DNA from: a virus
IMG/VR virus record: IMGVR_UViG_3300015360_000029
Location: 23,460 to 87,459 of that record
Strand: one strand, 5' to 3'
Length of the DNA stretch: 64,000 nucleotides
In this document: piece after piece, positions 1,733 through 57,831 of the stretch
Numbering within the stretch: position 1 is the first letter of the stretch
How the letters are laid out: every line of letters starts with the position of its first letter
Position numbers and translations under genes: made by a program
Notes under the pieces: generated by a model
What the model was told of the DNA's origin: nothing
What the model saw: only the letters and a program-made list of their open reading frames with translations
Database searches by the model: none

Positions 1733-3825
1733 CAGGTTTTGACCTTTTCAATCTTGGAACCGCCAAAGATGTTGTGTGAGTACAATTCTAATTCTTGCGT
1801 AAACAAATGTCCTGCGAAGATGTTCGTGACTTTGAAGATTACGTAAAAGTTATTCGAGAGCACACTTGATGCGAACGTACCGTCCTGTAACGCTTCATTC
1901 GTCTTGAAATTGACAGCTGGTCCTTTGATGTTCACCTTTGCGAACACAGGCGCGACTGCGTATGATTTCGTACTCAACGGTTTCTGAATTGTGAATGCAT
2001 TCCCAACTTGTGAGATGTCTGAATTTTCATTCAAGATATCCTTTTCCAGACTTTCACGATACTGCCCGCGGCTAATTACTCCACTTTCGGTAGTTGATTG
2101 TCCGGATGTCGATGGCGATGAAGCATCGCCAGTATGAAGCAGCAATTGTCCGATGTTGAACTTGCTCATGATCAACGGATTCCCTTTAATCGTCATAGCG
2201 ACGACAATTGGCGAACCAGCATAGAACATCGAAAGATTCTTTGAGTACTGCAATGATTCTGCGATTCGCTGTTGGCTCATTGGTTTCGATGCAACTGAAG
2301 AAGTATACCTTGTAAAGTTATCGAGAGCACTCTTCGAATCAAGTGGTAGCACTAATGGGTCGAATTCTCGAGCGAATGATATCGCATCCGTCTTTGCTGC
2401 AGAGTCTGGGGTATCACCGCTGCTGTCAGTGACGTTCCTCATTGCACTATCGCCAACTCTCATGTTCGAAGCAAGCAAGAATTGAAAGTCTTGAATCTTT
2501 ACATCAAAATTCAAAATAGAATCGTTCTTACCTGTGAAGATGAAGTCCCATTCTAGAAAGTCTTTTGGTTTTCTAATAGGCAGCCCGTTTTCATCAACAG
2601 AACTAAAATAGTATTGATTGTCGAGTTTTGATATATTGTTCGTCGACACGTCAGCATCTGTGAACAAGTTCGGAACTTGAAACTCGACAACATCGACGTG
2701 CACGACCATTGTGACATTATCAGTTGTGAGTCCTACAAGTTGCTTGAAGAACTTGATGATACCGCCTTGAACAGCATCGCTCTGTTTGAAGTTCCCCATC
2801 GCAGCGATCTCTGGAACAGTTTTGAAAATAGCTTCAAGAACGTCAGTGATCAGCGCACCAGTGTTGGATGCGAAATACGAGCTTCGAATTTGACCGATTG
2901 TTTGGGACGATCCGACTGGTGGTTCTTTGATTGCTTCAGCATCAGCTCTAGCTTTGTCAATCTGGTCTTTGAACAAAGTTTCAACAATCTTCCCAGTGTT
3001 AGATCCCGACAATTGAAACTTGTCCCAATCCTTTGGAATCGTGATCATGTATTGGACTTTGCGACCGATTTTTTTAGCAGTCCTGGATTCATTGAACTTG
3101 TTCACGATGCTTTGAACAGAGTCATAGTATTCGGTTGATTTTCGATTCAGCTCTTGTTCAAGGCTTGTGATCAATCCAAGCAAGGAATTATCAGATGACA
3201 AAGCATTCGTGGCTGTCGAGATCGTAAGAAATCGAGAATTCTGATTCACATCAAAATTCATGTTCGGCATGAATTCTAGAACGTAAGATCCCTTAGCATA
3301 ATCAAGATTGATTTCCATTTGCTGAAGATGCATCGGAATCGTTTCAGTTTGAATTATGTCGGTACTTCCGTCAGGTTTATGCCCGACGAACATCACACGA
3401 AGCATGAACACGATCCCATCGTAATTCGTCTTCATCTGCGAATCAAGCAACCACTGCATAAAATTCGCGAACGAAATTCCGACAGAATCGAGAACTGTCA
3501 TCGACAGATCAGCTGCGAGATTCGATGGTGCTGCACCCTTATGCAAACCATTAACGTATACATCGTACTTCAAACTTTCAACAGTGAATTGTGAGAATCG
3601 ACGAGTATCAATTACTAGAAAGATTTCGTCTTTGCGGCCATTAAAGATTACAGGCGCTCCGAGATACTTCGCATCGTCTATTGCTTTCAGCGACGATGCC
3701 ATCGTATCTTTATCTTCCGAAGTGAATAATTTCGCAGTAACTGTCGTTCGACAAGCAAGAAGAACGTAATGTATCGAATACGTTTGGAACTCGTCAAGCG
3801 GATTGAAAGGTGTTCCGTTTGCCAT
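1732..3825 (-). CDS. Probable baseplate hub protein (gp27-like position)
   Basis: 697-aa ORF between gp53-like and gp5-like genes; MTIKGNP and YVIFKVTNIF.G.FTQEL resemble hub/gpD C-termini. Confidence 0.55.
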   Translation of the reverse strand: MANGTPFNPLDEFQTYSIHYVLLACRTTVTAKLFTSEDKDTMASSLKAIDDAKYLGAPVIFNGRKDEIFLVIDTRRFSQFTVESLKYDVYVNGLHKGAAPSNLAADLSMTVLDSVGISFANFMQWLLDSQMKTNYDGIVFMLRVMFVGHKPDGSTDIIQTETIPMHLQQMEINLDYAKGSYVLEFMPNMNFDVNQNSRFLTISTATNALSSDNSLLGLITSLEQELNRKSTEYYDSVQSIVNKFNESRTAKKIGRKVQYMITIPKDWDKFQLSGSNTGKIVETLFKDQIDKARADAEAIKEPPVGSSQTIGQIRSSYFASNTGALITDVLEAIFKTVPEIAAMGNFKQSDAVQGGIIKFFKQLVGLTTDNVTMVVHVDVVEFQVPNLFTDADVSTNNISKLDNQYYFSSVDENGLPIRKPKDFLEWDFIFTGKNDSILNFDVKIQDFQFLLASNMRVGDSAMRNVTDSSGDTPDSAAKTDAISFAREFDPLVLPLDSKSALDNFTRYTSSVASKPMSQQRIAESLQYSKNLSMFYAGSPIVVAMTIKGNPLIMSKFNIGQLLLHTGDASSPSTSGQSTTESGVISRGQYRESLEKDILNENSDISQVGNAFTIQKPLSTKSYAVAPVFAKVNIKGPAVNFKTNEALQDGTFASSVLSNNFYVIFKVTNIFAGHLFTQELELYSHNIFGGSKIEKVKT

Positions 3826-4196
3826 TATACGATCGGGAGGATTGAAATTGGAACTTCGCGCTTCGATGGTACGCCACCAATTTTATTTGACATGATTGTT
3901 TTGATTCTGTCAATTGTCGGAATGTACAAGATCATTCCTTCTGTGATTTCCGAAGATGGATCAAGAATGTTGTTGTATTGTGCAACAACCCACCAATATC
4001 GCGGCTCGTCAAGAAATGTTGCGGTTATCCAATCAAGTCGACCAACAAATTTCTTCTCTACAATGTAAGTTGTATCATCAGAATTCATTGGGAACACGAC
4101 ACGTTCCCACCATTCGATAGCTATTGGATTCACCTCAGTGGTACCACCGGCGCTGTATCGTGATGTTCGAATTTGGGTGCTATTCTTTTCAGCCAT
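3825..4196 (-). CDS. gp53: Baseplate wedge protein, gp53-like (LysM-like)
   Basis: GRLDWITATFLDEPRYWWVVAQYNNILDP...G.ILYIP motif. Confidence 0.8.
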   Translation of the reverse strand: MAEKNSTQIRTSRYSAGGTTEVNPIAIEWWERVVFPMNSDDTTYIVEKKFVGRLDWITATFLDEPRYWWVVAQYNNILDPSSEITEGMILYIPTIDRIKTIMSNKIGGVPSKREVPISILPIV

Positions 4197-4197
4197 G

Positions 4198-5877
4198 TTA
4201 TGGTCCTAGGGCAGCGAGCTGCTCTGTAGCTCTTTGGAAATCACCTGATGCTCTTTTTATATCTGAAATTGCAGCATCGAGTTCTAAATTTATAGCAAAC
4301 ATTTCAGCTTTAGTGGTCGCTGCTGCCAGACGCGGTTCAAGGCTGTTATATTGAGCTTTGTGAAATTGAAGTTCTTTGATAACTACACCAATTTCGTTGT
4401 TAAGAGCACTCTTCTTAGCTTCAATTTCTGAGGAAGTTAAAGCTGGTGCAGGTTGTGCTGCAGGTTGTGCTGCTGACACAGATACAGCTGGTGCCACCTC
4501 AATAGATCCAGATTCGCCAGCACCGGATTCAGAAGCGGCCGTCTTCAATTCTGAAATAGCAGGTGTAACAAGATCAGGGATTACATTACCTCGACCGCCT
4601 TTAACAGAATCGCCAAGCCCAGCAAAAACTCTTTGTGCTGAATCGATATCGGAACGTATCCCACGTCCTCGGCCCCCATTTGGAACTGATTGAGCTTCTT
4701 GTTGAGGGATCTCATTTGTAGAAGTTCCAAAGTTCTGGCCTTCGTATCGAGATTTCGTATCGGCTGTTGGTTGCCCATAAGCATCAATCATGTTCCCGAG
4801 AAGGTAATCTTCAAGACTGAATTGATTGAATTCTTTTGTGCTGAAGCTCTCGACAAGTTGAATTGAAAGTTGGATTACCGTTGGGAACGGGATGTTTGAA
4901 GCTGATTCATCTGGCGACATTGCTGGGATGTAATCTACATCTTTCGGCCAATTCCAACTCAGTGACGTAATGACAACTGGCACCTCGCCGATCATCGATT
5001 TCCTGAATCCACGAAACTTCAAAACAGGTGGTGGCGCGCCAAGTCTGTTCTTGAATCGACCAGATTCGAGTGTGTGATCACCAAAGAACGGCATCGTCCA
5101 GCCGCGCAGCCAGTTCAAGTTCTTCAAGTTCAAAGATGCTTCGGCTGATGTTCGTGAAATAAATGTAGCATTCATTTGCCATTGAACACTTTCAGTGCCT
5201 TTATACTTTTGAAAAGAACCTGGGAACTGTGATGGGGATACAGCTTCGTATGATACTGACCGATTCTCAACGATCTCTGGCATCACTATGAATTCAATGA
5301 TCTCACGAGTGATGGTATTTTCAAGAACAACCAAATGCGAACGATCTTCTCCAGCATCTTGAATTTTGATTACTTCGTTCACAGATTGTGCTGTCGCTGT
5401 CACATCAAGACTGCTGCCGCCGAATCCGAGTCCGAAAGTGTTCCCGCCAAGAGCTCCGAACAAATTTGGTGGGGCAAATTGGGTAGGAGCAGTTCCACCT
5501 AAAAGGCTAGCTGTTGATGGCAGCTTTGATCCTAAATTTTGAAAAGAATTTATTCCATTCGTAAATCTATTTTTTAGATCAGATATACCTTCTCCAACTT
5601 TAGTGCCAAGATCTGAAACAAACATTCCAACTGCGCGGTATGCTTCACCTCGTCCCTTTGCTTGTTGGAGACTCGACATAGCTGCTAACCGATTTTGAGC
5701 TCGTTCGACAAATTCGGCAGGGGCCTGACCATTTTCAACCGCTGCCGCGAGTTCCCGAAGATCGTTTTCATCTTGTGTGGGAGTATCGACCCCCGGTAAC
5801 AACAGATACCCACCAACAAGGTTCTCAGAATTACTGCCTAAGATGCTTGTGTTAAAGGTTGAATCTGGAATTTCCAT
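4198..5877 (-). CDS. Baseplate/tail-tube junction protein (tube-initiator-like core with low-complexity extensions)
   Basis: Central YKGTESVQW...LRGWTMP...GAPPPVLKF...VPVVITSLSWNWP; located in the baseplate cluster. Confidence 0.65.
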   Translation of the reverse strand: MEIPDSTFNTSILGSNSENLVGGYLLLPGVDTPTQDENDLRELAAAVENGQAPAEFVERAQNRLAAMSSLQQAKGRGEAYRAVGMFVSDLGTKVGEGISDLKNRFTNGINSFQNLGSKLPSTASLLGGTAPTQFAPPNLFGALGGNTFGLGFGGSSLDVTATAQSVNEVIKIQDAGEDRSHLVVLENTITREIIEFIVMPEIVENRSVSYEAVSPSQFPGSFQKYKGTESVQWQMNATFISRTSAEASLNLKNLNWLRGWTMPFFGDHTLESGRFKNRLGAPPPVLKFRGFRKSMIGEVPVVITSLSWNWPKDVDYIPAMSPDESASNIPFPTVIQLSIQLVESFSTKEFNQFSLEDYLLGNMIDAYGQPTADTKSRYEGQNFGTSTNEIPQQEAQSVPNGGRGRGIRSDIDSAQRVFAGLGDSVKGGRGNVIPDLVTPAISELKTAASESGAGESGSIEVAPAVSVSAAQPAAQPAPALTSSEIEAKKSALNNEIGVVIKELQFHKAQYNSLEPRLAAATTKAEMFAINLELDAAISDIKRASGDFQRATEQLAALGP

Positions 5878-33757: not shown

Positions 33758-35437
33758 TCAAACAGCGGGAGGAGGCTCAACTCTAGCACCGGTTGCAGGC
33801 TCTTCTGCTGGTTCTTCAGGTGCTGCGCTGAAGAAATCACCAGGTGCAGGAAGCTCACTGCCAGCGCTAAAGTCTTCTTCGCTACCAGGGTCTCCACCAA
33901 TTTCAGCTTCGGCAGCGCTGCTTTCAACTTTCTGAGCTTCACGGTTCTCGTACACGGCTGGGTCATAGATTTGTTGCAATTCTGAGATGTTCGATGTCCC
34001 CGAGATCATACGCTCCTCTTTGAGCATCACTTCGTTCATCTGGATCTCGTCATCGGTCAGACCGAGGTAACGCTTCAGAATGAATCGGCGGCTCAAGTAC
34101 TTAGTACCTTCAATGTTGTTGAATGAACCGATCAGATCTGCGTCAAGAGCAGCTTGACGGTACAAAGCGAAGTTCGCTGGATCAGGAAGTTTGATCTTAA
34201 AAATTTCGTCGTCGATCTTCAGACCAACAACTTTCAAGTACACCTTGAATTCTTGATCAATGATTTCTTCGATACGATCTTGAAGGCGCATCACAAAATT
34301 CGCGAATCGCAATTCTTCAATGTATGCAATTCCGACCTTACCGTCATTCGTTGCAGCTCCTGCCTGTCCTTCGGCCCCAGTTCCCATGTACGATGTTGGG
34401 ATTCGAAGACCGCGGAACACTTTGTTCTGAAAGTACGCGAGCAAATTTGTACCGAAATCTTCAGTACCACCAGGCAACGTTTCAACACGTGACCCACGTC
34501 CTGATGATGTTACAGGAAAAAACAGATCTTCTTGAATCGACGTCGGATCGTATGCACCGTCAACCGTATCCTTGCCACCAGCTGATGTTGGCGATCGTTT
34601 CTGACGAATTTCATTCTTGATCTGCTCAAGGTATTGTTTCACTCGTTGTGGCGGCAAGTTTCCTGTGTCAACGTAGAACACACGACGTTCTGGGGCACGA
34701 ACAATTCTGTAAATGATAACTGCGTCTTCAATCATCGCAAGCTGACGATACACCCTATAAATCGGTTGCAGTACAGAAGCGCCGAACGGGGCAGAATATC
34801 CCATATCATCGGACATCGTGATGTGAATCATTGCCGCCGCTGGAATAATCTGTAGCTCTTCGTTCTTAGGTGAATACGGGTTCTGAACGCCTGTGTTCGC
34901 CTTCTTCACATGATAGCTGATCTTATCGCCGAGTTCATTGATCTCAATCCCGTGCACAAGCGATGGATCAACGTATTTCCATTTCTTCGTATCGGAAGTC
35001 TTTTGAAAGAAGCAATCGCCGTATTTGATCAAACAACGAGCGATGCTGAATAATCGTTTGTTGAAATCTTGAATTTCTGCCCATTGTCGAAGAGCTTGTC
35101 GAAGAGTAACTGATGTCGAATCGCTGATGTCTTGATTGTCTTCTTTCTGGTATTCAATTATGAACGGAAGATTTGTTTTGCTTTCTTTGCCAGACATTTC
35201 TTCTGCAATGATGTCAAGTGATCGTGAGATGTCAATGTCAGTGTCCATAGCATCGTACTGTTTGTACGACTGTGAGCGCGAGCCAGGTCCTCGCAAGACT
35301 TGCGAGTACCATTGGATCGACGACAACGAAGAGACATCTGTCTTTCGCGGGTCATACGCATCGGTTGCAAGCGAAGTGTACATCTGCTTCCGCGAAGCAG
35401 GTGTAATGATTCGCCAGTAGTTTGAAAATTGTGACAC
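33758..35437 (-). CDS. gp20: Portal protein
   Basis: QLAMIEDAVIIYRIVRAPERRVFYVDTG, EDLFFP..GRGSRVETLPGG, EELRF. Confidence 0.97.
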   Translation of the reverse strand: MSQFSNYWRIITPASRKQMYTSLATDAYDPRKTDVSSLSSIQWYSQVLRGPGSRSQSYKQYDAMDTDIDISRSLDIIAEEMSGKESKTNLPFIIEYQKEDNQDISDSTSVTLRQALRQWAEIQDFNKRLFSIARCLIKYGDCFFQKTSDTKKWKYVDPSLVHGIEINELGDKISYHVKKANTGVQNPYSPKNEELQIIPAAAMIHITMSDDMGYSAPFGASVLQPIYRVYRQLAMIEDAVIIYRIVRAPERRVFYVDTGNLPPQRVKQYLEQIKNEIRQKRSPTSAGGKDTVDGAYDPTSIQEDLFFPVTSSGRGSRVETLPGGTEDFGTNLLAYFQNKVFRGLRIPTSYMGTGAEGQAGAATNDGKVGIAYIEELRFANFVMRLQDRIEEIIDQEFKVYLKVVGLKIDDEIFKIKLPDPANFALYRQAALDADLIGSFNNIEGTKYLSRRFILKRYLGLTDDEIQMNEVMLKEERMISGTSNISELQQIYDPAVYENREAQKVESSAAEAEIGGDPGSEEDFSAGSELPAPGDFFSAAPEEPAEEPATGARVEPPPAV

Positions 35438-41344: not shown

Positions 41345-41766
41345 TGAGCGCTTTTGAGGACTTCGTCCAAACAGAACTTCCAAAGCGTCCGTATCTGAAT
41401 GCTGACGTAAGTCAGGAAACGATGATCATCAGGCGCGGTGCTGGTCCGCGCCAACTAGCTGCGATCACTTTCACAGAAGGTCAGATCCTTGTGATGAGTT
41501 CAGGTGTTTTGACACCTATGACCCTTTCGCAGATCGCAGGGATGTTCGGTGGCGGACTCAGAAGCTATGTACTCGCAGTTCCAATCGCTTCACAAACTTG
41601 GACTGTAACACACAATTTGAATTCTGAGAACGTGATCGTTCAAGCATTCGATGAAAGCAAATTCGTTGTGTTCCCGAATACAATCCAAATTGTAAGTGCA
41701 AACGTTGTTCAACTGACATTCAACACTGCGCAAGCCGGCGTGGCACGAGTCGTCTTCCTCGATTAA
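41344..41766 (+). CDS. Virion structural protein
   Basis: WTVTHNLNS..VIVQ..D C-terminal domain resembles that of 27763..28632. Confidence 0.65.
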   Translation: MSAFEDFVQTELPKRPYLNADVSQETMIIRRGAGPRQLAAITFTEGQILVMSSGVLTPMTLSQIAGMFGGGLRSYVLAVPIASQTWTVTHNLNSENVIVQAFDESKFVVFPNTIQIVSANVVQLTFNTAQAGVARVVFLD

Positions 41767-41775
41767 GGGAACTTT

Positions 41776-42264
41776 ATGTCACATCTTCTCAAATCGATGC
41801 TTCAAGACATCATCAATGATCGTCACGAGCAAGCTGCTGTTACGATGCACGAGTACTTCGTTGCGAAGACACGTGAAGTTACTGGTCTTGTTGAAGCTGA
41901 ACTATCCGAAGACGAAGTCGAAGACATTCTTGAATCGGCTGAAGATGAAGAACTTGACGAAGCACTTCGAGCTGGATTTGCAGGAGCAAGAAATTCAAGC
42001 GGCGAAAGAGAGATCGCATTGCCTGTTGGCACTGCTGAGCGTCAAAAACTTGCTAAACAAATCAAAGACAACCGTTCTGACAACAGAGATCCGAACTCCC
42101 GCGGTGCAGCAAATGATGCACAAAAAATGGAGCGTGAACCAGGAGAATCCGCTGGTGACTTCATGAAGCGAAAAGCTGCACTTTTGGCGAAGCGACATGG
42201 TGCAGCATCAGGAATGCAACGAGATTCTGGCGGCATCAGAGCAGATCTACGTCAGCATCCTTGA
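41776..42264 (+). CDS. Prohead-core-like paralog 3 (MLQDIINDR module plus charged cargo)
   Basis: N-terminus nearly identical to 13670..14038. Confidence 0.75.
   Translation: MSHLLKSMLQDIINDRHEQAAVTMHEYFVAKTREVTGLVEAELSEDEVEDILESAEDEELDEALRAGFAGARNSSGEREIALPVGTAERQKLAKQIKDNRSDNRDPNSRGAANDAQKMEREPGESAGDFMKRKAALLAKRHGAASGMQRDSGGIRADLRQHP
41797..41896 (+). repeat. 5' cassette repeat copy B (100 bp)
   Basis: 97/100 identical to the reverse complement of 13912-14011. Confidence 0.92.
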
Positions 42265-42289
42265 TGCTCAATAAATCGTTCTGTCCATG

Positions 42290-42344
42290 AAACAACAATG
42301 GGAGCCAATTGGCTCCCATTCCTTATTCAGCACCTAATGCTGTA
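42290..42344. repeat. 3' cassette repeat copy B with terminator hairpin
   Basis: AATGGGAGCCAATTGGCTCCCATTCCTTATTCAGCACCTAATGCTGTA; inverted copy of 13617-13670. Confidence 0.9.
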
Positions 42345-42890
42345 TTATGCGCGCATAATGAATTCAGCGCACTTGTCCATCAAGATACCTCGACCAGGTG
42401 TTTCAAGACTTGGTGTGTCGCGGTCGTCGCGGAACAGCACTTGATGATTCGGTCCGTACTTCAAGTACTCGTCGATGCCAGCATTGAACTGCTCGATCGT
42501 CAAGCTGATCCGATCGTCGATGAACTCGGTCTGGATATGCGGACGAGTGACGAACACTTCCATCACATCGAACCGCCGCTTGAACTCAGCGTAATACTGG
42601 CGCGATAGTGCGACGTCCTCGCCTCGAAGAACTTTGTCGTACACGAGGTTCGAGACGATAAATCGATCGAGCAAGTACGTCTTGGTTTTGTCGAGCAAGT
42701 CGAACATCGTGAACAGAATCTCGAAGTCCTTTTCGGTGTTCATTCGAAGCAACGTGCCGGATGGCATTGTCTTCGGGAACTTTACTTCGACTGCACGCGG
42801 CCACAAGTCACGAGCTAAGTCTTTCAGCATCGTCGACTTCCCGCAGTTGTCCATGCCGTCGAACACGATGAACTTAGTTTTGACGGACAC
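42345..42890 (-). CDS. dNMP (thymidylate-kinase-like) kinase
   Basis: P-loop FDGMDNCGKST and LLDRFIVSNLVY; probable GTG start at 42890 after GGGAG. Confidence 0.85.
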   Translation of the reverse strand: MSVKTKFIVFDGMDNCGKSTMLKDLARDLWPRAVEVKFPKTMPSGTLLRMNTEKDFEILFTMFDLLDKTKTYLLDRFIVSNLVYDKVLRGEDVALSRQYYAEFKRRFDVMEVFVTRPHIQTEFIDDRISLTIEQFNAGIDEYLKYGPNHQVLFRDDRDTPSLETPGRGILMDKCAEFIMRA

Positions 42891-43920
42891 TGATGAACTC
42901 CCTGTTGTAGTACGAATCGTTCTCAAGGGCGCGATACACGAACTGCCGAACTTGAGTGTCTATGACATTATAACTCAAGTCTTCAATGGCCTTACGAAGC
43001 CATCTTAGGTCTGGGATCGTGTTCTCATTGTCGTAGATCTTCGAGGTGTACGTAATGACTGGGCAGCGATAATGAAAGAACTCGATCGTGCCTGGGTGAA
43101 GAACGGTATCCATGTCATCAAGCATCACGATCAGCGGACGCGCAGCCAACATCTGATAGTACTCACTCTTTGACAGCTTCTTCGACATCACGAACGACTT
43201 GTCGCACTCGAGAGTATCGTTCGGGTCAGTGCAAAAGATCAAGTATCCTTCATCATGAAGACCTTGCGCTTCGAACGCTTCGAGGAACTGTTCCCACTGG
43301 TACGCTTTGTCGGAGATTCGAAACGGCCAGAACACCAGCTTTTCGGCCTTGTTCGTCTTGTCGAACTTCGGGAGAAGCGATTCATGAGCGCACTTCGAAT
43401 TGACGATCACCTTGTCGAGCAGATCAGGCCGAACTTCCAGAATGTATTCGCGCTGTCGCGGGTTCAGCACGGTTGTGAACAAGCTTTGCTCGATCGACTT
43501 CAGGTCTTGCTCGAAGAACTTGTCGATGTACGGACGATCAAGTTCTGGAAGTTTCGTGATGTTGAAGTTGTACACCACTGGCAATTGACCAGTGTACCCA
43601 GTCACATCTGAGATTACGATGTCGAACCACGACTCAGCGAAGTCCATCTCGGTCGAGTTCTTCGACCAGAACTGCTCACGAGTCTGAACCGCGTTCAAAC
43701 CGTAATCCATCTCCTTGAATTGAATGTGCGAGCGACCCTCGAACTTCAACTTCAGTTCGTCGAGATCCGATGAGTCTCGTGGGACCGCGATCGAGATCTG
43801 GTCGAAGTCAGATGCGAGGACACGAGCCATCGCGAGCTGAAAGTTCCCGTCCTTCAGGATCGAGTACTTCCCAGTATCGTAAGACCGCATCGAGAAAATC
43901 GGAATCCAGAGAACTCTCAT
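42874..43920 (-). CDS. Glycosyltransferase (GT-B-like), putative DNA/nucleotide modifier
   Basis: MRVLWIP N-terminus, VFWPFRISDK, LSKSEYYQMLA, GTIEFF...PVI. Confidence 0.65.
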   Translation of the reverse strand: MRVLWIPIFSMRSYDTGKYSILKDGNFQLAMARVLASDFDQISIAVPRDSSDLDELKLKFEGRSHIQFKEMDYGLNAVQTREQFWSKNSTEMDFAESWFDIVISDVTGYTGQLPVVYNFNITKLPELDRPYIDKFFEQDLKSIEQSLFTTVLNPRQREYILEVRPDLLDKVIVNSKCAHESLLPKFDKTNKAEKLVFWPFRISDKAYQWEQFLEAFEAQGLHDEGYLIFCTDPNDTLECDKSFVMSKKLSKSEYYQMLAARPLIVMLDDMDTVLHPGTIEFFHYRCPVITYTSKIYDNENTIPDLRWLRKAIEDLSYNVIDTQVRQFVYRALENDSYYNREFISVRQN

Positions 43921-44618
43921 TGCAGGAACTCGCTGATGTACTTGAAGTCACGTTCGAAGACATGCCCGTTGTGCATCGTCACGTGGTATTCTGTGTTTTC
44001 GTGAGCGATGCCGAGTTCATCGGCGATCTTGTGAAGCAACTTGATCTGAAGATAGATGTCAAGCTGAAGAACAACGGCGATGTTCTGCGAACGCATCGTC
44101 GTGCTCATGATCAACTTCCCGCTGCGAATCTGGAAGTTGAACGAGATCGTGCACGGGAACTCGAGCGTCTCGTCCTTGTCCAGAAGCTGAAGGTCGTTCG
44201 CATCGAGGATCATCATCGTCGCACGACGGGTCGTCGGCGTTCGCTTCAGCTCAGCGACGATCGAATCGTATTGCTTCGCGATCCGCGGACCGTAGAACGT
44301 GTTGAAGTTCGCTGGGAGCGCATCGCTCTTCGGCTTCGTCAGGAACTTCGCAACACCAGGATAGTCCTTCAGCGCTTCTTGCGCATCAGTCCCGCCGGAG
44401 ATCATGAACTGCCAGAACGTCTCAGCGTAATCGTATCCGATTCGATTGATTCGAGGATCTGTGAACTTGTAGTCTAGCGTCGAAGTGGAGCTAGCTTGAA
44501 CGTCGATCAGTTCGCGAGCCTTTCCGATTCGAGTGTCAGATTCATGATCCGGATGATTCATCGCAAGCTCGTTCAACAGCTTGAACAGCTGCTCCATTGA
44601 CTTCGTTTCGATTCTCAT
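43917..44618 (-). CDS. Thymidylate-synthase-fold dCMP-modifying enzyme
   Basis: YGPRI, TRRA, catalytic FPCT, MRSQN...LDI with Asp at the TS Asn177-equivalent position. Confidence 0.85.
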   Translation of the reverse strand: MRIETKSMEQLFKLLNELAMNHPDHESDTRIGKARELIDVQASSTSTLDYKFTDPRINRIGYDYAETFWQFMISGGTDAQEALKDYPGVAKFLTKPKSDALPANFNTFYGPRIAKQYDSIVAELKRTPTTRRATMMILDANDLQLLDKDETLEFPCTISFNFQIRSGKLIMSTTMRSQNIAVVLQLDIYLQIKLLHKIADELGIAHENTEYHVTMHNGHVFERDFKYISEFLQ

Positions 44619-44627
44619 TTGTTCTCC

Positions 44628-45131
44628 TTAGATTTCTTGACCAGCGCGGAATGCGAGATCGAGGTACGCTTCAGCTAGTTCAGGCGAGAGGCGGGGTCCA
44701 ACGTTGTCGAACACATAGAACGTTGAGCGAAGACCACAGTACGTCATCGCTTCGGACATGTTCTTCGTGTTGTATTCCTTTTGCTGTCCCATACTCAAAA
44801 GACAGGTCGCATCCTTCCAGAACTTAGGCTTCATTTTATCTCCTTCAAGATCGAACGCGAACCCCTTGACGAAGTTCGTTTGGAGATAATTCACGAGGAT
44901 CGCTGGTGGCATCTCCCACCATACTGGGTACGCGAAGCTGATGTGATCAGCATTCAAAATTAAACCTTGATGATCAAGTGTGGAAGTTTCTGGATTGTAC
45001 AGGTTGTACGAGAAAACAGTATGCCCAGCATAGTGTGCGCCGCCTCTGAACTTTGTGGCGAGCCGTCCTATGAATGAAGATTGAGACAAGTCTGGGTGAG
45101 CAAAGATTTGAAGTACGTTCATACAGTCCAA
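44628..45131 (-). CDS. Flavodoxin-like NAD(P)H-dependent oxidoreductase (Flavodoxin_2/MdaB-KefF type)
   Basis: IFAHP...S, ADHISFAYPVWWEMPPAIL, GFAF. Confidence 0.85.
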   Translation of the reverse strand: MDCMNVLQIFAHPDLSQSSFIGRLATKFRGGAHYAGHTVFSYNLYNPETSTLDHQGLILNADHISFAYPVWWEMPPAILVNYLQTNFVKGFAFDLEGDKMKPKFWKDATCLLSMGQQKEYNTKNMSEAMTYCGLRSTFYVFDNVGPRLSPELAEAYLDLAFRAGQEI

Positions 45132-45291
45132 TAAATAACAGTAAGATTGATTGTAACAAACCCTTTGGGTTTGGCAACCTAAGTTCAGGATCTGTTCGAC
45201 CTCTTTTCAAGATACACCCTGAAATCGAGTCTGCTCGATAAATAGATCATACGCACTAGCTCCAGACATTGAGCTCACAGGAGAGAAAACA

Positions 45292-45885
45292 ATGGCAACA
45301 CTCAGTAACTTCGGCATCCCAGGTGCCGGTGCAGGTATTCTGCATCCACGCCTGAAGAACAAGTTCCGTATCACGTTCTTGAACATGGGCCAACTTGTCC
45401 CGGGTACGAACTCGCGGAATCTCACTATGCAGGTTACGAATATCACTCTCCCGAATTTGACATTCGAAGAAGTTATTCTACATCGATATAACTCGACGGC
45501 TTACGTTGCTGGGAAGCACTCGTGGGAACCAATCAGCGTCACAGTTGAAGACGACATCACAGGTCTCGCGGCTACAGTTGTCAAGGGTCAACTTGAAACT
45601 CAGCAGCGCATCATTGGTTCCGATCTCGATGGTCGTTGGTTGAACACAGCCGCGACTGGTTCGGACTACAAGTTCGGTGTGAAGATCGACCAGCTTGACG
45701 GTGACGAAGGCGTCGTTCAGACTTGGATCCTCGAAGGTGCAATGATGACTTCTGCTGACTTTGGCGATCGTGACTATTCGGCTTCAGAAGCAGCAACGAT
45801 CACAATGAACATCCGGTACGACCACGCCCGCCATATCGAGTCTGGTTCTGGATACGGTACAGCTCTGGGCGGTAACGTAGCTTGA
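45292..45885 (+). CDS. gp19: Tail tube protein
   Basis: PRLKNKFRITF, YVAGKHSWEPISVTVEDD, YKF, W.LEG, IRYDHA; late promoter at 45238-45244. Confidence 0.92.
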   Translation: MATLSNFGIPGAGAGILHPRLKNKFRITFLNMGQLVPGTNSRNLTMQVTNITLPNLTFEEVILHRYNSTAYVAGKHSWEPISVTVEDDITGLAATVVKGQLETQQRIIGSDLDGRWLNTAATGSDYKFGVKIDQLDGDEGVVQTWILEGAMMTSADFGDRDYSASEAATITMNIRYDHARHIESGSGYGTALGGNVA

Positions 45886-46036: not shown

Positions 46037-47422
46037 ATGCCATTTTCAGTTAAAAGCCTTCTTAATGAATCCAAGATCTCGCTTGAGAAAGCTGCGACTG
46101 ATAAGTTCGGGTCTGTGGTTGAAGACTTTACAAAGAATGCGATTGGTTCAATATTTCCGTCGAGTTCACAATCGAAGCCGGCCTCGGCATACGATGGATC
46201 GTGGTACGCAACTTCGTATGCAGCACACCTTGCCGGTGCGACAAGTTTCAGACCAAAGCTCAAATTTCTTTTCAAAGTTCAATTTATCTTCACAGAAGAA
46301 GCTAAGAGGATGTATCCTAAAGCACTCGGAAATACGGCACTTTCGAATCAATTCGTATTCATGATAAAGACTGTTGATCGGCCGAAAGTCGATTTTGAGT
46401 ACGAAGAAGATGTGAACATGTACAACTTCAGGACAAAAGTCTTGAAGAAGATTCGACATCGCGATCTTACCATATCATTCATGGATGACAGCGGAAATAG
46501 AGTATTTGAATTCTTTCGGTCATTGATGATGGTTCACTCCCCGATTACACGAACGCAAATGGATCGTGACAATACATTGAAGAACCCATCAACCGGCCTT
46601 CAAAAGCTCTCGACAAGCTCTGGAATGTCATTCGCAGGGAATCAAACTGATAGCGCGCACCGCGCCGTCGTGAACTCATCATTTGGAAATTCTATTGAAG
46701 CTATTCGAGTTCAACAAATTTTCGTTGATTCATCGGAATCTCTTGATCGCGCGACGAAGATGGTGTCATTCGATTTCATCAATCCGCGTATTGTCTCATT
46801 TGATCTTGACGAACTTAGCCATGAAGCAAATGACGTGAATCTGCTTACGATGGTATTCGACTATGATTGGATGGAAATGGTCGATGTCGGCGTACTTGGC
46901 ACAGCACAAACGCAATATGGTTCGGATGTTCCGGTGCTCCCGCCAGCAAAGAATATCACACAGTACGCACCATCAGACATCACACCGAACAAGCCAAACG
47001 GCGTTTCAGAGAGCGCAGCAGGAAACGGAGCTGGACCACCTGGATTCTTTGGTGCTCTTGCAAATTCAGCAGCAAGTATCCTTGGACGAGGTGCTTCTAA
47101 GCTTACATCTGATTTGATTGGCAGATCAGTACGAACTATTGCTGGAAACGGTAGATTCGCAACAGCACTTGGCGGCATTGTTTCGAGCAACCTTTCAGGC
47201 CCTATTGGCGGAATCGTTTCAGGTGCTGCCAGGGAACAACTTTCGGGTATTGCCGGAACTGCGAGCAACATACTGAGTGGCACTAATGCACGTGCATTAG
47301 CACGTGCTGTTGGCGATGCTTCAACGGCAGGATTCGATGAAGCAAAATCTATTGTGTCATCTTCTTCGGCTTCAGCTGCTTCGAATCCTGCGATTGACAA
47401 TCGACCAAGAGGCGGAACATAA
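46037..47422 (+). CDS. Tail-tube-fold baseplate initiator (gp54/gp48-like)
   Basis: PKLKFLFKVQF, IKTVDRPK, NMYN, ISFMDD, FDYD parallel the gp19 fold. Confidence 0.75.
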   Translation: MPFSVKSLLNESKISLEKAATDKFGSVVEDFTKNAIGSIFPSSSQSKPASAYDGSWYATSYAAHLAGATSFRPKLKFLFKVQFIFTEEAKRMYPKALGNTALSNQFVFMIKTVDRPKVDFEYEEDVNMYNFRTKVLKKIRHRDLTISFMDDSGNRVFEFFRSLMMVHSPITRTQMDRDNTLKNPSTGLQKLSTSSGMSFAGNQTDSAHRAVVNSSFGNSIEAIRVQQIFVDSSESLDRATKMVSFDFINPRIVSFDLDELSHEANDVNLLTMVFDYDWMEMVDVGVLGTAQTQYGSDVPVLPPAKNITQYAPSDITPNKPNGVSESAAGNGAGPPGFFGALANSAASILGRGASKLTSDLIGRSVRTIAGNGRFATALGGIVSSNLSGPIGGIVSGAAREQLSGIAGTASNILSGTNARALARAVGDASTAGFDEAKSIVSSSSASAASNPAIDNRPRGGT

Positions 47423-54942: not shown

Positions 54943-55548
54943 ATGATGGAAAAAAGAAACCCATCAATGAAAACTGTTGCATACATTCACGGCTTCAATT
55001 CGTCTTCACGATCGTTCTCATACTTACTCAAGAATCTTCAAATTCACAATGTGATTCTTGTGAATTACGAAAGTCATCAAAAACTTCAAGATTCGCTTGA
55101 TCAAGTTTTTCGACAACTCCCGAAGGGTGAGATCGCGCTTCTTGGACACAGCCTTGGCGGTTTGATCGCGACCCTCTTGGCAATTGACGAACCTCAACGA
55201 ATCACAGATCTCGTAACGATTTCGGCGCCGCTAGCTGGATCGAAAGCTGCAAATGCTCTTCGTTGGCTTCCAGGCTCTCCGGCACTTCTCGAAGGCATCA
55301 CACAGACTTCGCCATTCATTCGGAAAGTATCAACAGCGAAACTTTCAATTCCAACGTTGAGCATCTTTAGCACTAGTGGTCATTTGAAAGCTCTTGGCGA
55401 AACTAATGACAGCATCGTTTCAGTTGCAAGTCAAAAGGCTTTAAAATTCGGAAAGAAAGCTGAAGTGAAGGCGAATCATTTTGAAGTTCTGCTTCACGAT
55501 CGAACAACAGATCTTATTCAGAAACACCTCTTTGGAGATCGATCATGA
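54943..55548 (+). CDS. Alpha/beta hydrolase (esterase/lipase-like)
   Basis: IHGFNS, nucleophile GHSLGG, NDSIV, NHF triad. Confidence 0.9.
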   Translation: MMEKRNPSMKTVAYIHGFNSSSRSFSYLLKNLQIHNVILVNYESHQKLQDSLDQVFRQLPKGEIALLGHSLGGLIATLLAIDEPQRITDLVTISAPLAGSKAANALRWLPGSPALLEGITQTSPFIRKVSTAKLSIPTLSIFSTSGHLKALGETNDSIVSVASQKALKFGKKAEVKANHFEVLLHDRTTDLIQKHLFGDRS

Positions 55549-56297
55549 TTCTTTCTACGCGCGCCCAAAAAATCTCAAATACTGAAGAACTTCGTCGTTG
55601 TGCTTTGGACCCGAAGTACTTCATGATGAAATACATTCTATCGGAAGTTTCGAGTGTTCAAGAGAAATTCATCGACGGAATCCTTGAATTCAAGCAGCTC
55701 ATCGTGAAACATCCTCGTCAAGGCGGATTCACAACTGCATCAATGGCATATCTTCTTTGGGAGATGATGTTCATGCCGAATCGAACATCGGTTGTTGTTC
55801 TTTCCACAGTTCAAATTGCGACAAATTTAACTGCAATCGTTCGGGTAATGCAACAAAAGCTTCCAAGCTGGCTGAGATCTGAAATTTTGTATGAGGGGCG
55901 AGATTTATTGAAATTCGAAAATGAATCAAAACTATCATTCGTAGCATGTTCAGAAAGATCTATGCATGGCGTCATGTTCGATACTCTATACATCGGAGAC
56001 ATGGCGTATGCTGATGAAGCTCATCTTCAAGGATTCTGGAAAAATGTTGCATCGCGCATTGATTCGCATACGAGAGTTTTGATTCATAGTACACCAAAAC
56101 CTGATGAAAATTTGTTCAAAACACTGTTTCAAAAAGCAGCTAAGGAACGCTCTATGCTTCAAACAATGAGCTTCGAGTACTGCGAGATGCCATACGCTTC
56201 GTTGCAGCATGAATCACAGACGATAAGCTACATCGGTTTTAGCGCTTTTAGAATTGAATTCATGGCACTATTCGAAAATGAAGAACCCACAGCTTAA
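55545..56297 (+). CDS. Degenerate terminase large-subunit ATPase-domain paralog
   Basis: ELRRCALDPKYF, PRQGGFTT (Walker A Lys lost), LYIGDMAY (Walker B DE lost), HSTP. Confidence 0.75.
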   Translation: MILSTRAQKISNTEELRRCALDPKYFMMKYILSEVSSVQEKFIDGILEFKQLIVKHPRQGGFTTASMAYLLWEMMFMPNRTSVVVLSTVQIATNLTAIVRVMQQKLPSWLRSEILYEGRDLLKFENESKLSFVACSERSMHGVMFDTLYIGDMAYADEAHLQGFWKNVASRIDSHTRVLIHSTPKPDENLFKTLFQKAAKERSMLQTMSFEYCEMPYASLQHESQTISYIGFSAFRIEFMALFENEEPTA

Positions 56298-57831
56298 GAA
56301 GGCATTCGCCACGGATGAATATACTCCGTACATGATATCGGAGCTTCGGAAGTGCAAGGATGACCCGATTTATTTCATGCGGAATTACATTAAGATTCAG
56401 CATCCGACGAAGGGCACTATCAAGTTTAATCTATTTGAATACCAAGAACGGTTCGTGAAATGCATGCACGAAAATCGATTCGTTCTCACGCTTCAACCGC
56501 GACAGTGTGGAAAGACACTCACAGTCGCTATGTATCTTCTTTGGTTTTCATGCTTTACTGATGATGTTACAGTTCTGATTGCTTCTAAGAATCAAAGTCA
56601 CGCACTCGAGATCGCAGCTCGTGTTCGATTCGCGTATGAAGAATTGCCGAACTGGCTGAAGCCAGGATTGAAGTATTTCAACAGGCACAATGTCGAGCTT
56701 GATAACGGGTCACGCATTGTTTCGGAAGCAACAACCGAAAAGACAGGTCGAGGTCTCTCGATTTCGAAGCTGTATCTTGACGAGCTAGCTTTTATCTCGC
56801 CACGAATTCAAGAATTGATGTGGGCATCGCTCGCGCCAACTCTATCGACTGGTGGTTCAGCGATCATCTCAAGCACGCCGAACGGTGACACAGAACTGTT
56901 CGCTCAATTGTGGCGTCGCGCGATGTCAGGCCTTCAAGACGAGCTAGGGACGAATTTCGTTCCGTTTCAAGTTAATTGGCGCGAACATCCAGAACGTGAT
57001 GATAGGTATTGGGATACAATGGTGAACATGCTCGGTCTATTGAAGACTCGGCAAGAAGTCGGTGTCGAATTTCTTTCTTCTGATGCGATGTTAATTTCAT
57101 CAATGAAGCTTCAGCAAATCGCTGGGAAGATGGTTCATCATGAAGACATGGGATTCAAGTTCTGGGTTTCTGAAGAAGAGCTCGGCGGGGCCGGCAAGAC
57201 ATATCTTGTATCAATCGATCCTGCGACTGGGAATGGAAAAGACTTCAGCGTAATTGAAATCTTCGATTTCCCTCGGCTTCAGCAGATTGCTGAATGGCGT
57301 TCGAATGAAATCAACATCCCGCTGTTGTACGCGAAAGTAAAGTGGATTTTGAATAAACTCTCGGCTGTTGTGAATCGCGGCAGGGCCGAAGTGCTGTGGA
57401 CGTTCGAACGGAACGGGATCGGCGAAGCCATGTCTGCTCTGTACTTCAATGACGAAAATCAGCCAGAACACCCAGAACTTTATTGTGATGTTCCTGGAAA
57501 ACTCGGAGTGTATACGACTGGGAAAACGAAGATTCAAGCATGTCTTCAAACGAAGGGATTGATTGAAAAGACGAAGAACGGGTTCGATCTTGCTTCCGAA
57601 ACACTGATCTTCGAGCTGAAGAACTATGTAGCGAAAGGCGGATCATATGAAGCAAAGTCTGGTGCGACTGATGATTGCGTTTCAGCTTTACTCGGCATCG
57701 CACGCCTTATCAAGCGATTATCTGAGTACAATGATGATGCATTCAAGCAGGTGAACGAATACGTGAATCCTGAAGCTGAAGATACCGAAGATAGTTGGGG
57801 TGGCGAGCCTGTCCCGTTTGTGATAGTGTAA
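56278..57831 (+). CDS. gp17: Terminase large subunit
   Basis: ELRKCKDDPIYF, PRQCGKT, GRG, LYLDELAF, SSTPNG, nuclease IDPATG..D, ERN, DDCV. Confidence 0.97.
   Translation: MKNPQLKKAFATDEYTPYMISELRKCKDDPIYFMRNYIKIQHPTKGTIKFNLFEYQERFVKCMHENRFVLTLQPRQCGKTLTVAMYLLWFSCFTDDVTVLIASKNQSHALEIAARVRFAYEELPNWLKPGLKYFNRHNVELDNGSRIVSEATTEKTGRGLSISKLYLDELAFISPRIQELMWASLAPTLSTGGSAIISSTPNGDTELFAQLWRRAMSGLQDELGTNFVPFQVNWREHPERDDRYWDTMVNMLGLLKTRQEVGVEFLSSDAMLISSMKLQQIAGKMVHHEDMGFKFWVSEEELGGAGKTYLVSIDPATGNGKDFSVIEIFDFPRLQQIAEWRSNEINIPLLYAKVKWILNKLSAVVNRGRAEVLWTFERNGIGEAMSALYFNDENQPEHPELYCDVPGKLGVYTTGKTKIQACLQTKGLIEKTKNGFDLASETLIFELKNYVAKGGSYEAKSGATDDCVSALLGIARLIKRLSEYNDDAFKQVNEYVNPEAEDTEDSWGGEPVPFVIV

Follow-up and report, generated by a model that had tools for sequence, protein, structure and literature searches.

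A predicted 5-hydroxycytosine operon with a linked Flavodoxin_2 reductase gene in an uncultured jumbo myovirus

The DNA of phages RB69 and DLP3 has been shown to contain arabosylated 5-hydroxycytosine (5hoC) (Lee et al., NAR 2026, PMC13326640). In these phages, the thymidylate synthase (TS) homologs RB69 gp48 and DLP3 gp80 produce 5-hydroxy-deoxycytidine monophosphate (5-hydroxy-dCMP), with the oxygen derived from 18O2 and with flavin mononucleotide (FMN) co-purifying (PMC13326640). In all enzymes shown to make 5-hydroxydeoxycytidine (5hodC), an Asn replaces the folate-contacting Asp169, and this D169N substitution (E. coli ThyA numbering, used throughout) has been proposed as diagnostic, with in vivo confirmation for nine more homologs; Lee et al. 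leave open how flavin came to replace folate as the cofactor of such an enzyme (PMC13326640). The pathway has been described only in 2025–2026. Here, we analyze a four-gene minus-strand cassette located at 42345–45131 of a 64,000-nt stretch (the window, to which all coordinates without a locus number refer) of the IMG/VR virus record IMGVR_UViG_3300015360_000029, in which the gene for a Flavodoxin_2-fold NAD(P)H oxidoreductase stands directly upstream of the gene for a TS homolog of the RB69 gp48 type, followed by the genes for a glycosyltransferase (GT) and a nucleotide kinase. The core pathway is known, and the locus is predicted to be a new member of it in a new phage lineage; what appears to be a new feature is the recurrent linkage of flavin reductase genes, across two families, to D169N TS genes.

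The TS homolog (43917..44618, minus strand, 233 aa) is annotated by homology as a predicted TS-fold 5-hydroxy-dCMP synthase (dCMP C5-hydroxylase). It matches Pfam Thymidylat_synt (PF00303; 40.9 bits, cut-off 24.3) and phrog_160 (E = 6e-34), and a sequence search of the PDB retrieves 9iqu, 9iqc, and 9ir2 (E = 1.3e-77), entries titled just “Thymidylate synthase”, followed by MilA (4e-7) and T4 dCMP hydroxymethylase (3e-6). Because the 9iqu chain is nearly identical by eye to RB69 gp48, and because the Foldseek descriptions name phage HY126, the 9iq and 9ir series of entries most probably come from He et al. 2026. In a tblastn search, 446 of 50,697 phage records match, the best at about 55% identity; among them is RB69 ORF048c, which occupies the position of gene 42 in T4. 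The identity to RB69 gp48 is 54.8% over 230 residues, as against only about 25% to T4 gp42. The motifs LEFPCT and MRSQNIAVVLQLDI are present, and alignment to E. coli ThyA, T4 gp42, and RB69 gp48 yields C146, E143, N169, and D177, as in gp48, with Arg126/127, Arg166, Ser167, Tyr94, and His207 also kept; E. coli ThyA has D169/N177/L143, and D169 is kept in T4 gp42. The C146/E143/N169/D177 signature is common to the window protein and all 39 aligned IMG/VR homologs. In a maximum-likelihood (ML) tree with 102 TS homologs, the window protein groups within the D169N clade and well away from T4 gp42; the tree came from a rapid search, has long branches, and is indicative only.

An earlier note on this DNA, made from its letters alone, had pointed to the catalytic Cys in FPCT, to an Asp at TS position 177, and to an Asn in place of the folate-contacting Asp, all of which the ThyA alignment bears out (Cys146, D177, and N169). 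The same note had proposed flavin-dependent C5 hydroxylation of dCMP without methylenetetrahydrofolate (CH2-THF), and this proposal is supported by the level of identity to RB69 gp48 and the signature shared with it (PMC13326640); the proposed chemistry matches what was published in 2026 for homologs and is no longer new. We consider it very likely that the TS homolog is a 5hodCMP synthase.

The reductase gene (44628..45122, minus strand) is assigned an ATG start at 45122 from an alignment of 15 homologs, which gives a protein of 164 aa; the open reading frame (ORF) extends to a TTG at 45131 (167 aa). The protein matches Pfam Flavodoxin_2 (PF02525) with 60.9 bits (cut-off 27; E = 1.7e-16), and its AlphaFold2 (AF2) model (pLDDT 93.1) retrieves quinone oxidoreductases and azoreductases with Foldseek (4r81, 3lcm, and NQO2; probability 1.00, TMq 0.75–0.85), while the sequence matches are likewise NAD(P)H:quinone oxidoreductases and azoreductases. 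Its 22 relatives in the protein database share 50–81% identity. The motifs AHP...SF and PxWWEMPPA are conserved among the homologs; AHP...SF and the longer F-x-Y-P-x-W-W...P-A-x-L align with 4r81 and are invariant in the 15 homologs, and the loops that contain them may be flavin-binding. The reductase has no tblastn match among the 50,697 cultured phage records, and neither RB69 nor the Ralstonia jumbo phage RsoM2USA has a PF02525 match.

The earlier note had named co-occurrence of the Flavodoxin_2 gene with such TS genes in other phages as a check on its proposal, and such co-occurrence was found. Each of the 13 distinct IMG/VR contigs that carry the gene has a D169N TS gene downstream of it, with the GT and kinase genes coming next wherever the contig extends far enough. 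A looser reciprocal scan with the pattern W[WCF]EMPP[AY] again gave a D169N TS gene in 13 of 13 cases and added one new distant contig, in which the TS gene lies 5.5 kb downstream. Scanning IMG/VR from the TS side yielded 56 loci, of which 13 carry the reductase gene, 3 end at the TS gene, and 40 are without a reductase match, the last group being mostly Straboviridae-like and each having at least 4.9 kb of upstream sequence. A metagenome scan, which recovered 77 TS loci (these and the IMG/VR loci are numbered with an L below), detected the Flavodoxin_2 gene in all six window-type loci and in three of five RSNN-type loci, the remaining two having just about 0.6 kb of upstream sequence; the metagenome and IMG/VR sets overlap, with contigs that are apparently identical, as judged by equal lengths, such as L104/L037, L125/L065, L147/L066, and L149/L067. 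In the 77 metagenome loci, every reductase match is located upstream of the TS gene, despite a similar extent of downstream sequence per locus.

The association goes beyond frozen synteny, as is seen from a TS clade swap, from rearranged distant loci, and from the outcome of the looser scan. In L016, L017, and L018, the TS homolog is only 34% identical and belongs to a different D169N clade (RSNN...C[FY]D), and the reductase, GT, and kinase remain. The cassettes with the TS genes at L016 6021–6707 and L017 5675–6286, both from IMG/VR relatives in the lineage of the window, lie at the same site, with identities of 55–58% for the GT, 55–61% for the kinase, and 45–49% for the reductase. These sequences suggest that the hydroxylase gene was swapped inside a conserved cassette in L016 and L017. 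In L166, L167, and L169, where the reductase is 30–40% identical, the reductase, TS, GT, and kinase genes lie within about 9 kb in other arrangements, with no adjoining tail-tube gene. As a separate observation, the stop-to-stop TS frame of L017 (5297–6466) spans 390 aa, and the protein extends at its C-terminus by about 60 aa that the other homologs do not show.

Linkage to D169N TS genes is also exhibited by a second reductase family. A search of 21 D169N-TS records with PF03358 (FMN_red) gave nine above the cut-off, all of low GC content (21–33%) and all with the TS motif RSQN...KLD. The FMN_red proteins are about 155 aa in length and contain a PEWNGSFP motif; in NCBIfam they come closest to the MsuE/SsuE FMN reductases, with scores far under the cut-off, and no tblastn match to them was found among the 50,697 cultured phage records. 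In the reciprocal IMG/VR scan from FMN_red, a D169N TS gene lies 5 nt to 5.7 kb away in 10 of 11 loci, the eleventh being a 15.7-kb contig that possibly ends too early, and in the metagenome scan, FMN_red was found in 19 of the 22 low-GC loci that have at least 6 kb of upstream sequence. In the TS tree, the Flavodoxin_2-linked genes fall in two separate parts, those linked to FMN_red make up part of the low-GC clade and also include L095, and no reductase-linked gene is placed among the Straboviridae. PF01613 (HpaC-type Flavin_Reduct) gave 0 of 21 records over the cut-off, Fre-like and nitroreductase-like reductases lying outside this search.

The gene order FMN_red, NAD-dependent DNA ligase, small ORF, and D169N TS was observed in L068 (2179–9715), L066 (4472–9540), and L063 (2035–7011). 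Downstream of the TS gene in this group are unassigned proteins of 430–550 aa, which are possible GTs, and then sugar-nucleotide enzymes. L068 has two epimerase/dehydratases together with a Tmk-like kinase, and L066 has a SIS isomerase and an NTP-transferase/choline-kinase-like protein. This gene content hints that the 5-hydroxycytosine of the low-GC phages may carry sugars other than arabinose.

The GT of the window cassette (42874..43920, minus strand, 348 aa) is assigned from phrog_3891 (E = 3.7e-78) and its GT-B fold as a homolog of RB69 gp46:47 and DLP3 gp79, with no Pfam family match and no PDB sequence match at E ≤ 1. It matches 358 phage records by tblastn with an identity of about 40%, the matching gene being the one that immediately follows the TS homolog, and is 41% identical to RB69 gp47 and 38% identical to RB69 gp46; according to Lee et al., a sequencing error made the latter two out of a single gene, and their product has been proposed to be the first arabinosyltransferase (PMC13326640). 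The AF2 model of the GT (pLDDT 90.3) retrieves GT-B enzymes with Foldseek, the top match being MshA (3c4q), which is also the top structural match given for RB69 gp46:47 (PMC13326640, Table 1); the list also contains BH4 glucosyltransferases and the phage HY126 glycosyltransferases 9ir0/9iqz. In the alignment, the GT of the window lineage carries a C-terminal extension of about 45–60 aa that is missing from its Straboviridae (T4-like) relatives. Action of this enzyme on 5hoC is regarded as likely.

The kinase gene (42345..42890, minus strand) encodes a Tmk/YorR-like P-loop nucleotide kinase homologous to RB69 gp45. The GTG at 42890, which gives 181 aa, is the more likely start, because it is preceded by AGGGAG and because the L005 homolog starts likewise; the ORF extends to a TTG at 42926 (193 aa). 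The protein has a P-loop, scores 21.4 bits against Pfam Thymidylate_kin (under the cut-off of 27), and matches phrog_761 (E = 1.3e-17), RB69 gp45 (31.5% identity, E = 4e-18), and YorR in the PDB (2axp/3kb2, E = 2e-4). A kinase of the T4 gp1 type was considered and rejected: the PDB sequence search at E ≤ 0.1 gives YorR and thymidylate kinases only, with no match to 1dek/1del. The gene identities read in the earlier note thus hold for the oxidoreductase, the TS homolog, and the GT-B-like glycosyltransferase, as judged by Pfam, PHROG, and fold matches, and its dNMP kinase stands as a P-loop nucleotide kinase, corrected to the Tmk/YorR-like type.

The four ORFs, all in the same direction and closely packed, exactly fill 42345–45131, so that the tight coupling of minus-strand genes described in the earlier note is confirmed. 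The reductase stop codon is separated from the start of the TS gene by 9 nt that contain AAGGAG, and the overlaps are 4 nt for TS and GT and 17 nt for GT and kinase; from this layout, the reductase gene is predicted to be translationally coupled to the TS gene. A sigma-70-like promoter candidate (45177–45150, minus strand; TTGCCA, 16 nt, TG-TACAAT) lies just 5' of the first gene and is the sole promoter-like site in 41700–45700, where the shuffled mean is 3.4. An intrinsic-terminator-like hairpin (42320–42297, minus strand), with a 10-bp stem containing six GC pairs and followed by a T-run, lies directly after the kinase stop codon and is one of two terminator-like sites in the region, against a shuffled expectation of 3.6. 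Neither count is above chance, and the positions alone would fit a single transcription unit. The virion genes on either side, tail-sheath-like and tail-tube genes, are on the plus strand, and the cassette is directed away from them. On balance, the four genes probably form one operon for the synthesis of glycosylated 5-hydroxycytosine DNA. In L004, about 860 nt (1964–2828) lie between the TS and GT genes, which overlap elsewhere; this segment is possibly an inserted element.

In the mechanism that we propose, the catalytic Cys of the TS-fold enzyme would attack C6 of dCMP, and reduced flavin and O2, instead of CH2-THF, would hydroxylate C5 to generate 5-hydroxy-dCMP. The Flavodoxin_2 protein would oxidize NAD(P)H and hand reduced flavin to the synthase, as in a two-component flavin monooxygenase. 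Production of 5-hydroxy-dCTP for the phage polymerase would then fall to the Tmk-like kinase, or to one of the gp1 type encoded in the unsampled 76% of the genome, together with the host NDP kinase, and the GT-B enzyme would move a sugar from an NDP-sugar onto the 5-OH group. All four steps are inferred, the synthase step from strong homology and the reductase step from gene linkage and fold only. Feeding of the synthase by the reductase is, in our estimate, somewhat more probable than not. The T4-like (Straboviridae) phages from which the pathway is known have no such reductase gene and presumably rely on host flavin reductases.

Other explanations have to be considered at both of the central steps. 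The TS homolog could be an ordinary folate-dependent dCMP hydroxymethylase like T4 gp42, in which case the operon would make glycosyl-hydroxymethylcytosine; N177D and the acidic residue 143 are common to T4 gp42 and the window protein, and relatives are labelled dCMP hydroxymethylase in many database records, but the identity is about 25% to T4 gp42 versus 55% to RB69 gp48, residue 169 is Asn, as in the 5hodC makers (PMC13326640), and T4 gp42 is distant from the D169N clade in which the window protein is placed. This reading was rejected on the D169N substitution and the clade membership, and we hold it to be very improbable. At the reductase step, the Flavodoxin_2 protein could serve as a protective two-electron quinone-type reductase, for example re-reducing oxidized 5-hydroxy-dC nucleotides or limiting the redox cycling and H2O2 that arise from an uncoupled flavin hydroxylase. 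5-Hydroxycytosine oxidizes easily, the nearest sequence and fold matches of the protein are quinone oxidoreductases and azoreductases, not named flavin reductases, and linkage to the TS gene is equally compatible with any pathway-associated function. However, the second linked family, FMN_red, resembles MsuE/SsuE, the classical reductases of two-component monooxygenases, and a shared flavin supply explains both families more simply; a protective role is therefore considered unlikely. The reductases could, alternatively, be unrelated auxiliary metabolic genes in an early or nucleotide-metabolism block, kept near the TS gene by inherited synteny without functional coupling, as the single lineage and insertion site of most Flavodoxin_2 loci, the distance of FMN_red from the TS gene in low-GC phages (up to 5.7 kb, with a DNA ligase gene between), the 3 of 22 testable low-GC loci without a reductase, and the ability of the studied phages to manage without one would suggest. 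Against such hitch-hiking, two separate families are involved, a D169N TS gene is nearby in 13/13 and 10/11 cases when the search starts from the reductase, the reductase is always upstream of the TS gene where found in the metagenome loci, and Flavodoxin_2 stays with the cassette after TS clade swap and rearrangement; in addition, neither family is matched in the 50,697 cultured phage genomes, which argues that these are not common phage genes. Uncoupled inheritance is likewise judged to have a low probability.

Several observations weigh against the mechanism proposed here. Most of the 13 Flavodoxin_2 contigs are of one lineage, with tail-tube proteins 79–93% identical and the same insertion site, and so represent few independent events, and six state changes account for all testable rows of the TS tree. 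The NAD-dependent DNA ligase gene often stands between FMN_red and the TS gene in the low-GC phages, and FMN_red could belong to a general replication-gene block. The three low-GC loci that lack a reductase (L134, L137, and L162) have none within about 7 kb, neither reductase is carried by any of the seven Straboviridae-type loci whose upstream sequence reaches 6 kb or more or by either of the two RSSN-type loci, and a scan of GTDB genomes gave only three loci binned into metagenome-assembled genomes, probably mis-binned phage contigs, and a 7-kb neighborhood contains a reductase in none of them. As a rule, Flavodoxin_2 enzymes reduce quinones or azo compounds and hold their flavin tightly instead of reducing free flavin, and the synthase may take NAD(P)H directly, which would make a phage reductase unnecessary. 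RB69 gp48 together with a kinase suffices for 5hodC in E. coli, the RB69 kinase shown to phosphorylate 5hodCMP is the gp1-type gp159 and not the Tmk-like cluster kinase, and single DLP3 GTs were inactive in vitro on 5hoC DNA (PMC13326640). Given that RB69 gp48 is active in E. coli with no phage reductase present, the partner would be dispensable where the host supplies reduced flavin, which fits the absence of a reductase from the sampled Straboviridae-type phages. With these points taken into account, we lean slightly towards the view that, in uncultured phages, the TS-fold cytosine hydroxylase works as a two-component flavin monooxygenase whose reductase has been recruited at least twice, as Flavodoxin_2 in jumbo myoviruses and as SsuE/MsuE-like FMN_red in low-GC aquatic-type phages.

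The window sits in an 87,459-bp IMG/VR record with a CheckV completeness of 24%. The portal protein (33758–35437) is closest to that of the Ralstonia jumbo phage RsoM2USA (344 kb; 50.7% identity), followed by those of Xanthomonas, Stenotrophomonas, Agrobacterium, and Salmonella jumbo phages, and RsoM2USA itself, the nearest cultured relative, has just a distant TS-like match (35% identity over residues 102–232). By these comparisons, the jumbo-myovirus lineage would be new for the pathway, outside Straboviridae and Pootjesviridae. An arabinose pathway was looked for, and the record contains no homologs of RB69 gp49–55, NTP_transferase, Epimerase, or Glycos_transf_1, a result that is uninformative at 24% completeness. 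Two further features were noted. In the window, the ORFs at 55545–56297 (250 aa) and 56254–57831 (525 aa) both match terminase large-subunit PHROGs and may represent a split or duplicated terminase. In L005, a 265-aa ORF (3494–4291, minus strand), the N-terminus of which resembles a GIY-YIG homing endonuclease by eye, lies between the homologs of window 45292–45885 (tail tube) and 46037–47422 and is absent from this position in the window.

In a full-text literature search, which did not reach He et al. 2026 (Nat Chem Biol) or Mahler et al. 2025 (Cell Host Microbe), no phage flavin reductase tied to 5-hydroxycytosine was found, and in PMC13326640, the words flavodoxin, NADH, and NADPH are absent and “reductase” occurs once, for gp50. 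A dedicated reductase recurrently beside the hydroxylase would be the missing electron-supply component of the pathway, in an enzyme pair open to reconstitution, and could serve, in addition to D169N, as a genomic marker for predicting 5hoC-type DNA in phages known from metagenomes. It would also imply that the supply of reductant is limiting and host-dependent in 5-hydroxycytosine DNA synthesis, a dependence masked in the model coliphages since E. coli provides it. The range of the pathway would be extended to jumbo myoviruses akin to a Ralstonia phage. Should the reductase turn out to be irrelevant, what is left is one more member of a known pathway.

Among the described systems, the synthases of RB69 (gp48), Acinetobacter phage DLP3 (gp80), and, by inference, E. 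coli phage HY126 (9iqu/9iqc/9ir2) share with the window protein the TS fold, the residue signature, and the GT family encoded next to it; the window phage differs in being an RsoM2USA-related jumbo myovirus instead of a member of Straboviridae, and in having a reductase gene joined to the operon. The RB69 gp45–gp48, DLP3 gp78–gp80, and Rhizobium phage RL38JI gp214–216 clusters contain the same trio of kinase, first GT, and TS (PMC13326640, Table 1), and the TS–GT–kinase order in the window equals RB69 gp48–gp47:46–gp45. Unlike in these clusters, no arabinose-5-P isomerase, NTP-transferase/kinase, HAD phosphatase, epimerase, or second GT is present in the 87-kb record (24% complete), and the window GT has its extra C-terminal segment. 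The T4 pathway of gp42, gp1, and the alpha- and beta-glucosyltransferases follows the same logic, with dCMP modified by a TS-family enzyme, a kinase, incorporation by the polymerase, and a GT acting on DNA; in the window, the predicted modification is OH rather than CH2OH, flavin and O2 are predicted to be used rather than CH2-THF, and the kinase is not of the gp1 type, whereas T4 keeps D169 in gp42 and has no reductase. In two-component flavin monooxygenases, such as SsuD/SsuE, MsuD/MsuE, and HpaB/HpaC, the gene for a small NAD(P)H:flavin reductase lies beside that for an oxygenase using reduced flavin and O2. The phage loci resemble these systems in that separate reductase and oxygenase genes are linked across lineages and that the second phage reductase family is SsuE/MsuE-like; they differ in that the window reductase belongs to Flavodoxin_2, not to FMN_red or Flavin_Reduct, and in that the TS fold of the candidate oxygenase bears no relation to the oxygenase components known so far.

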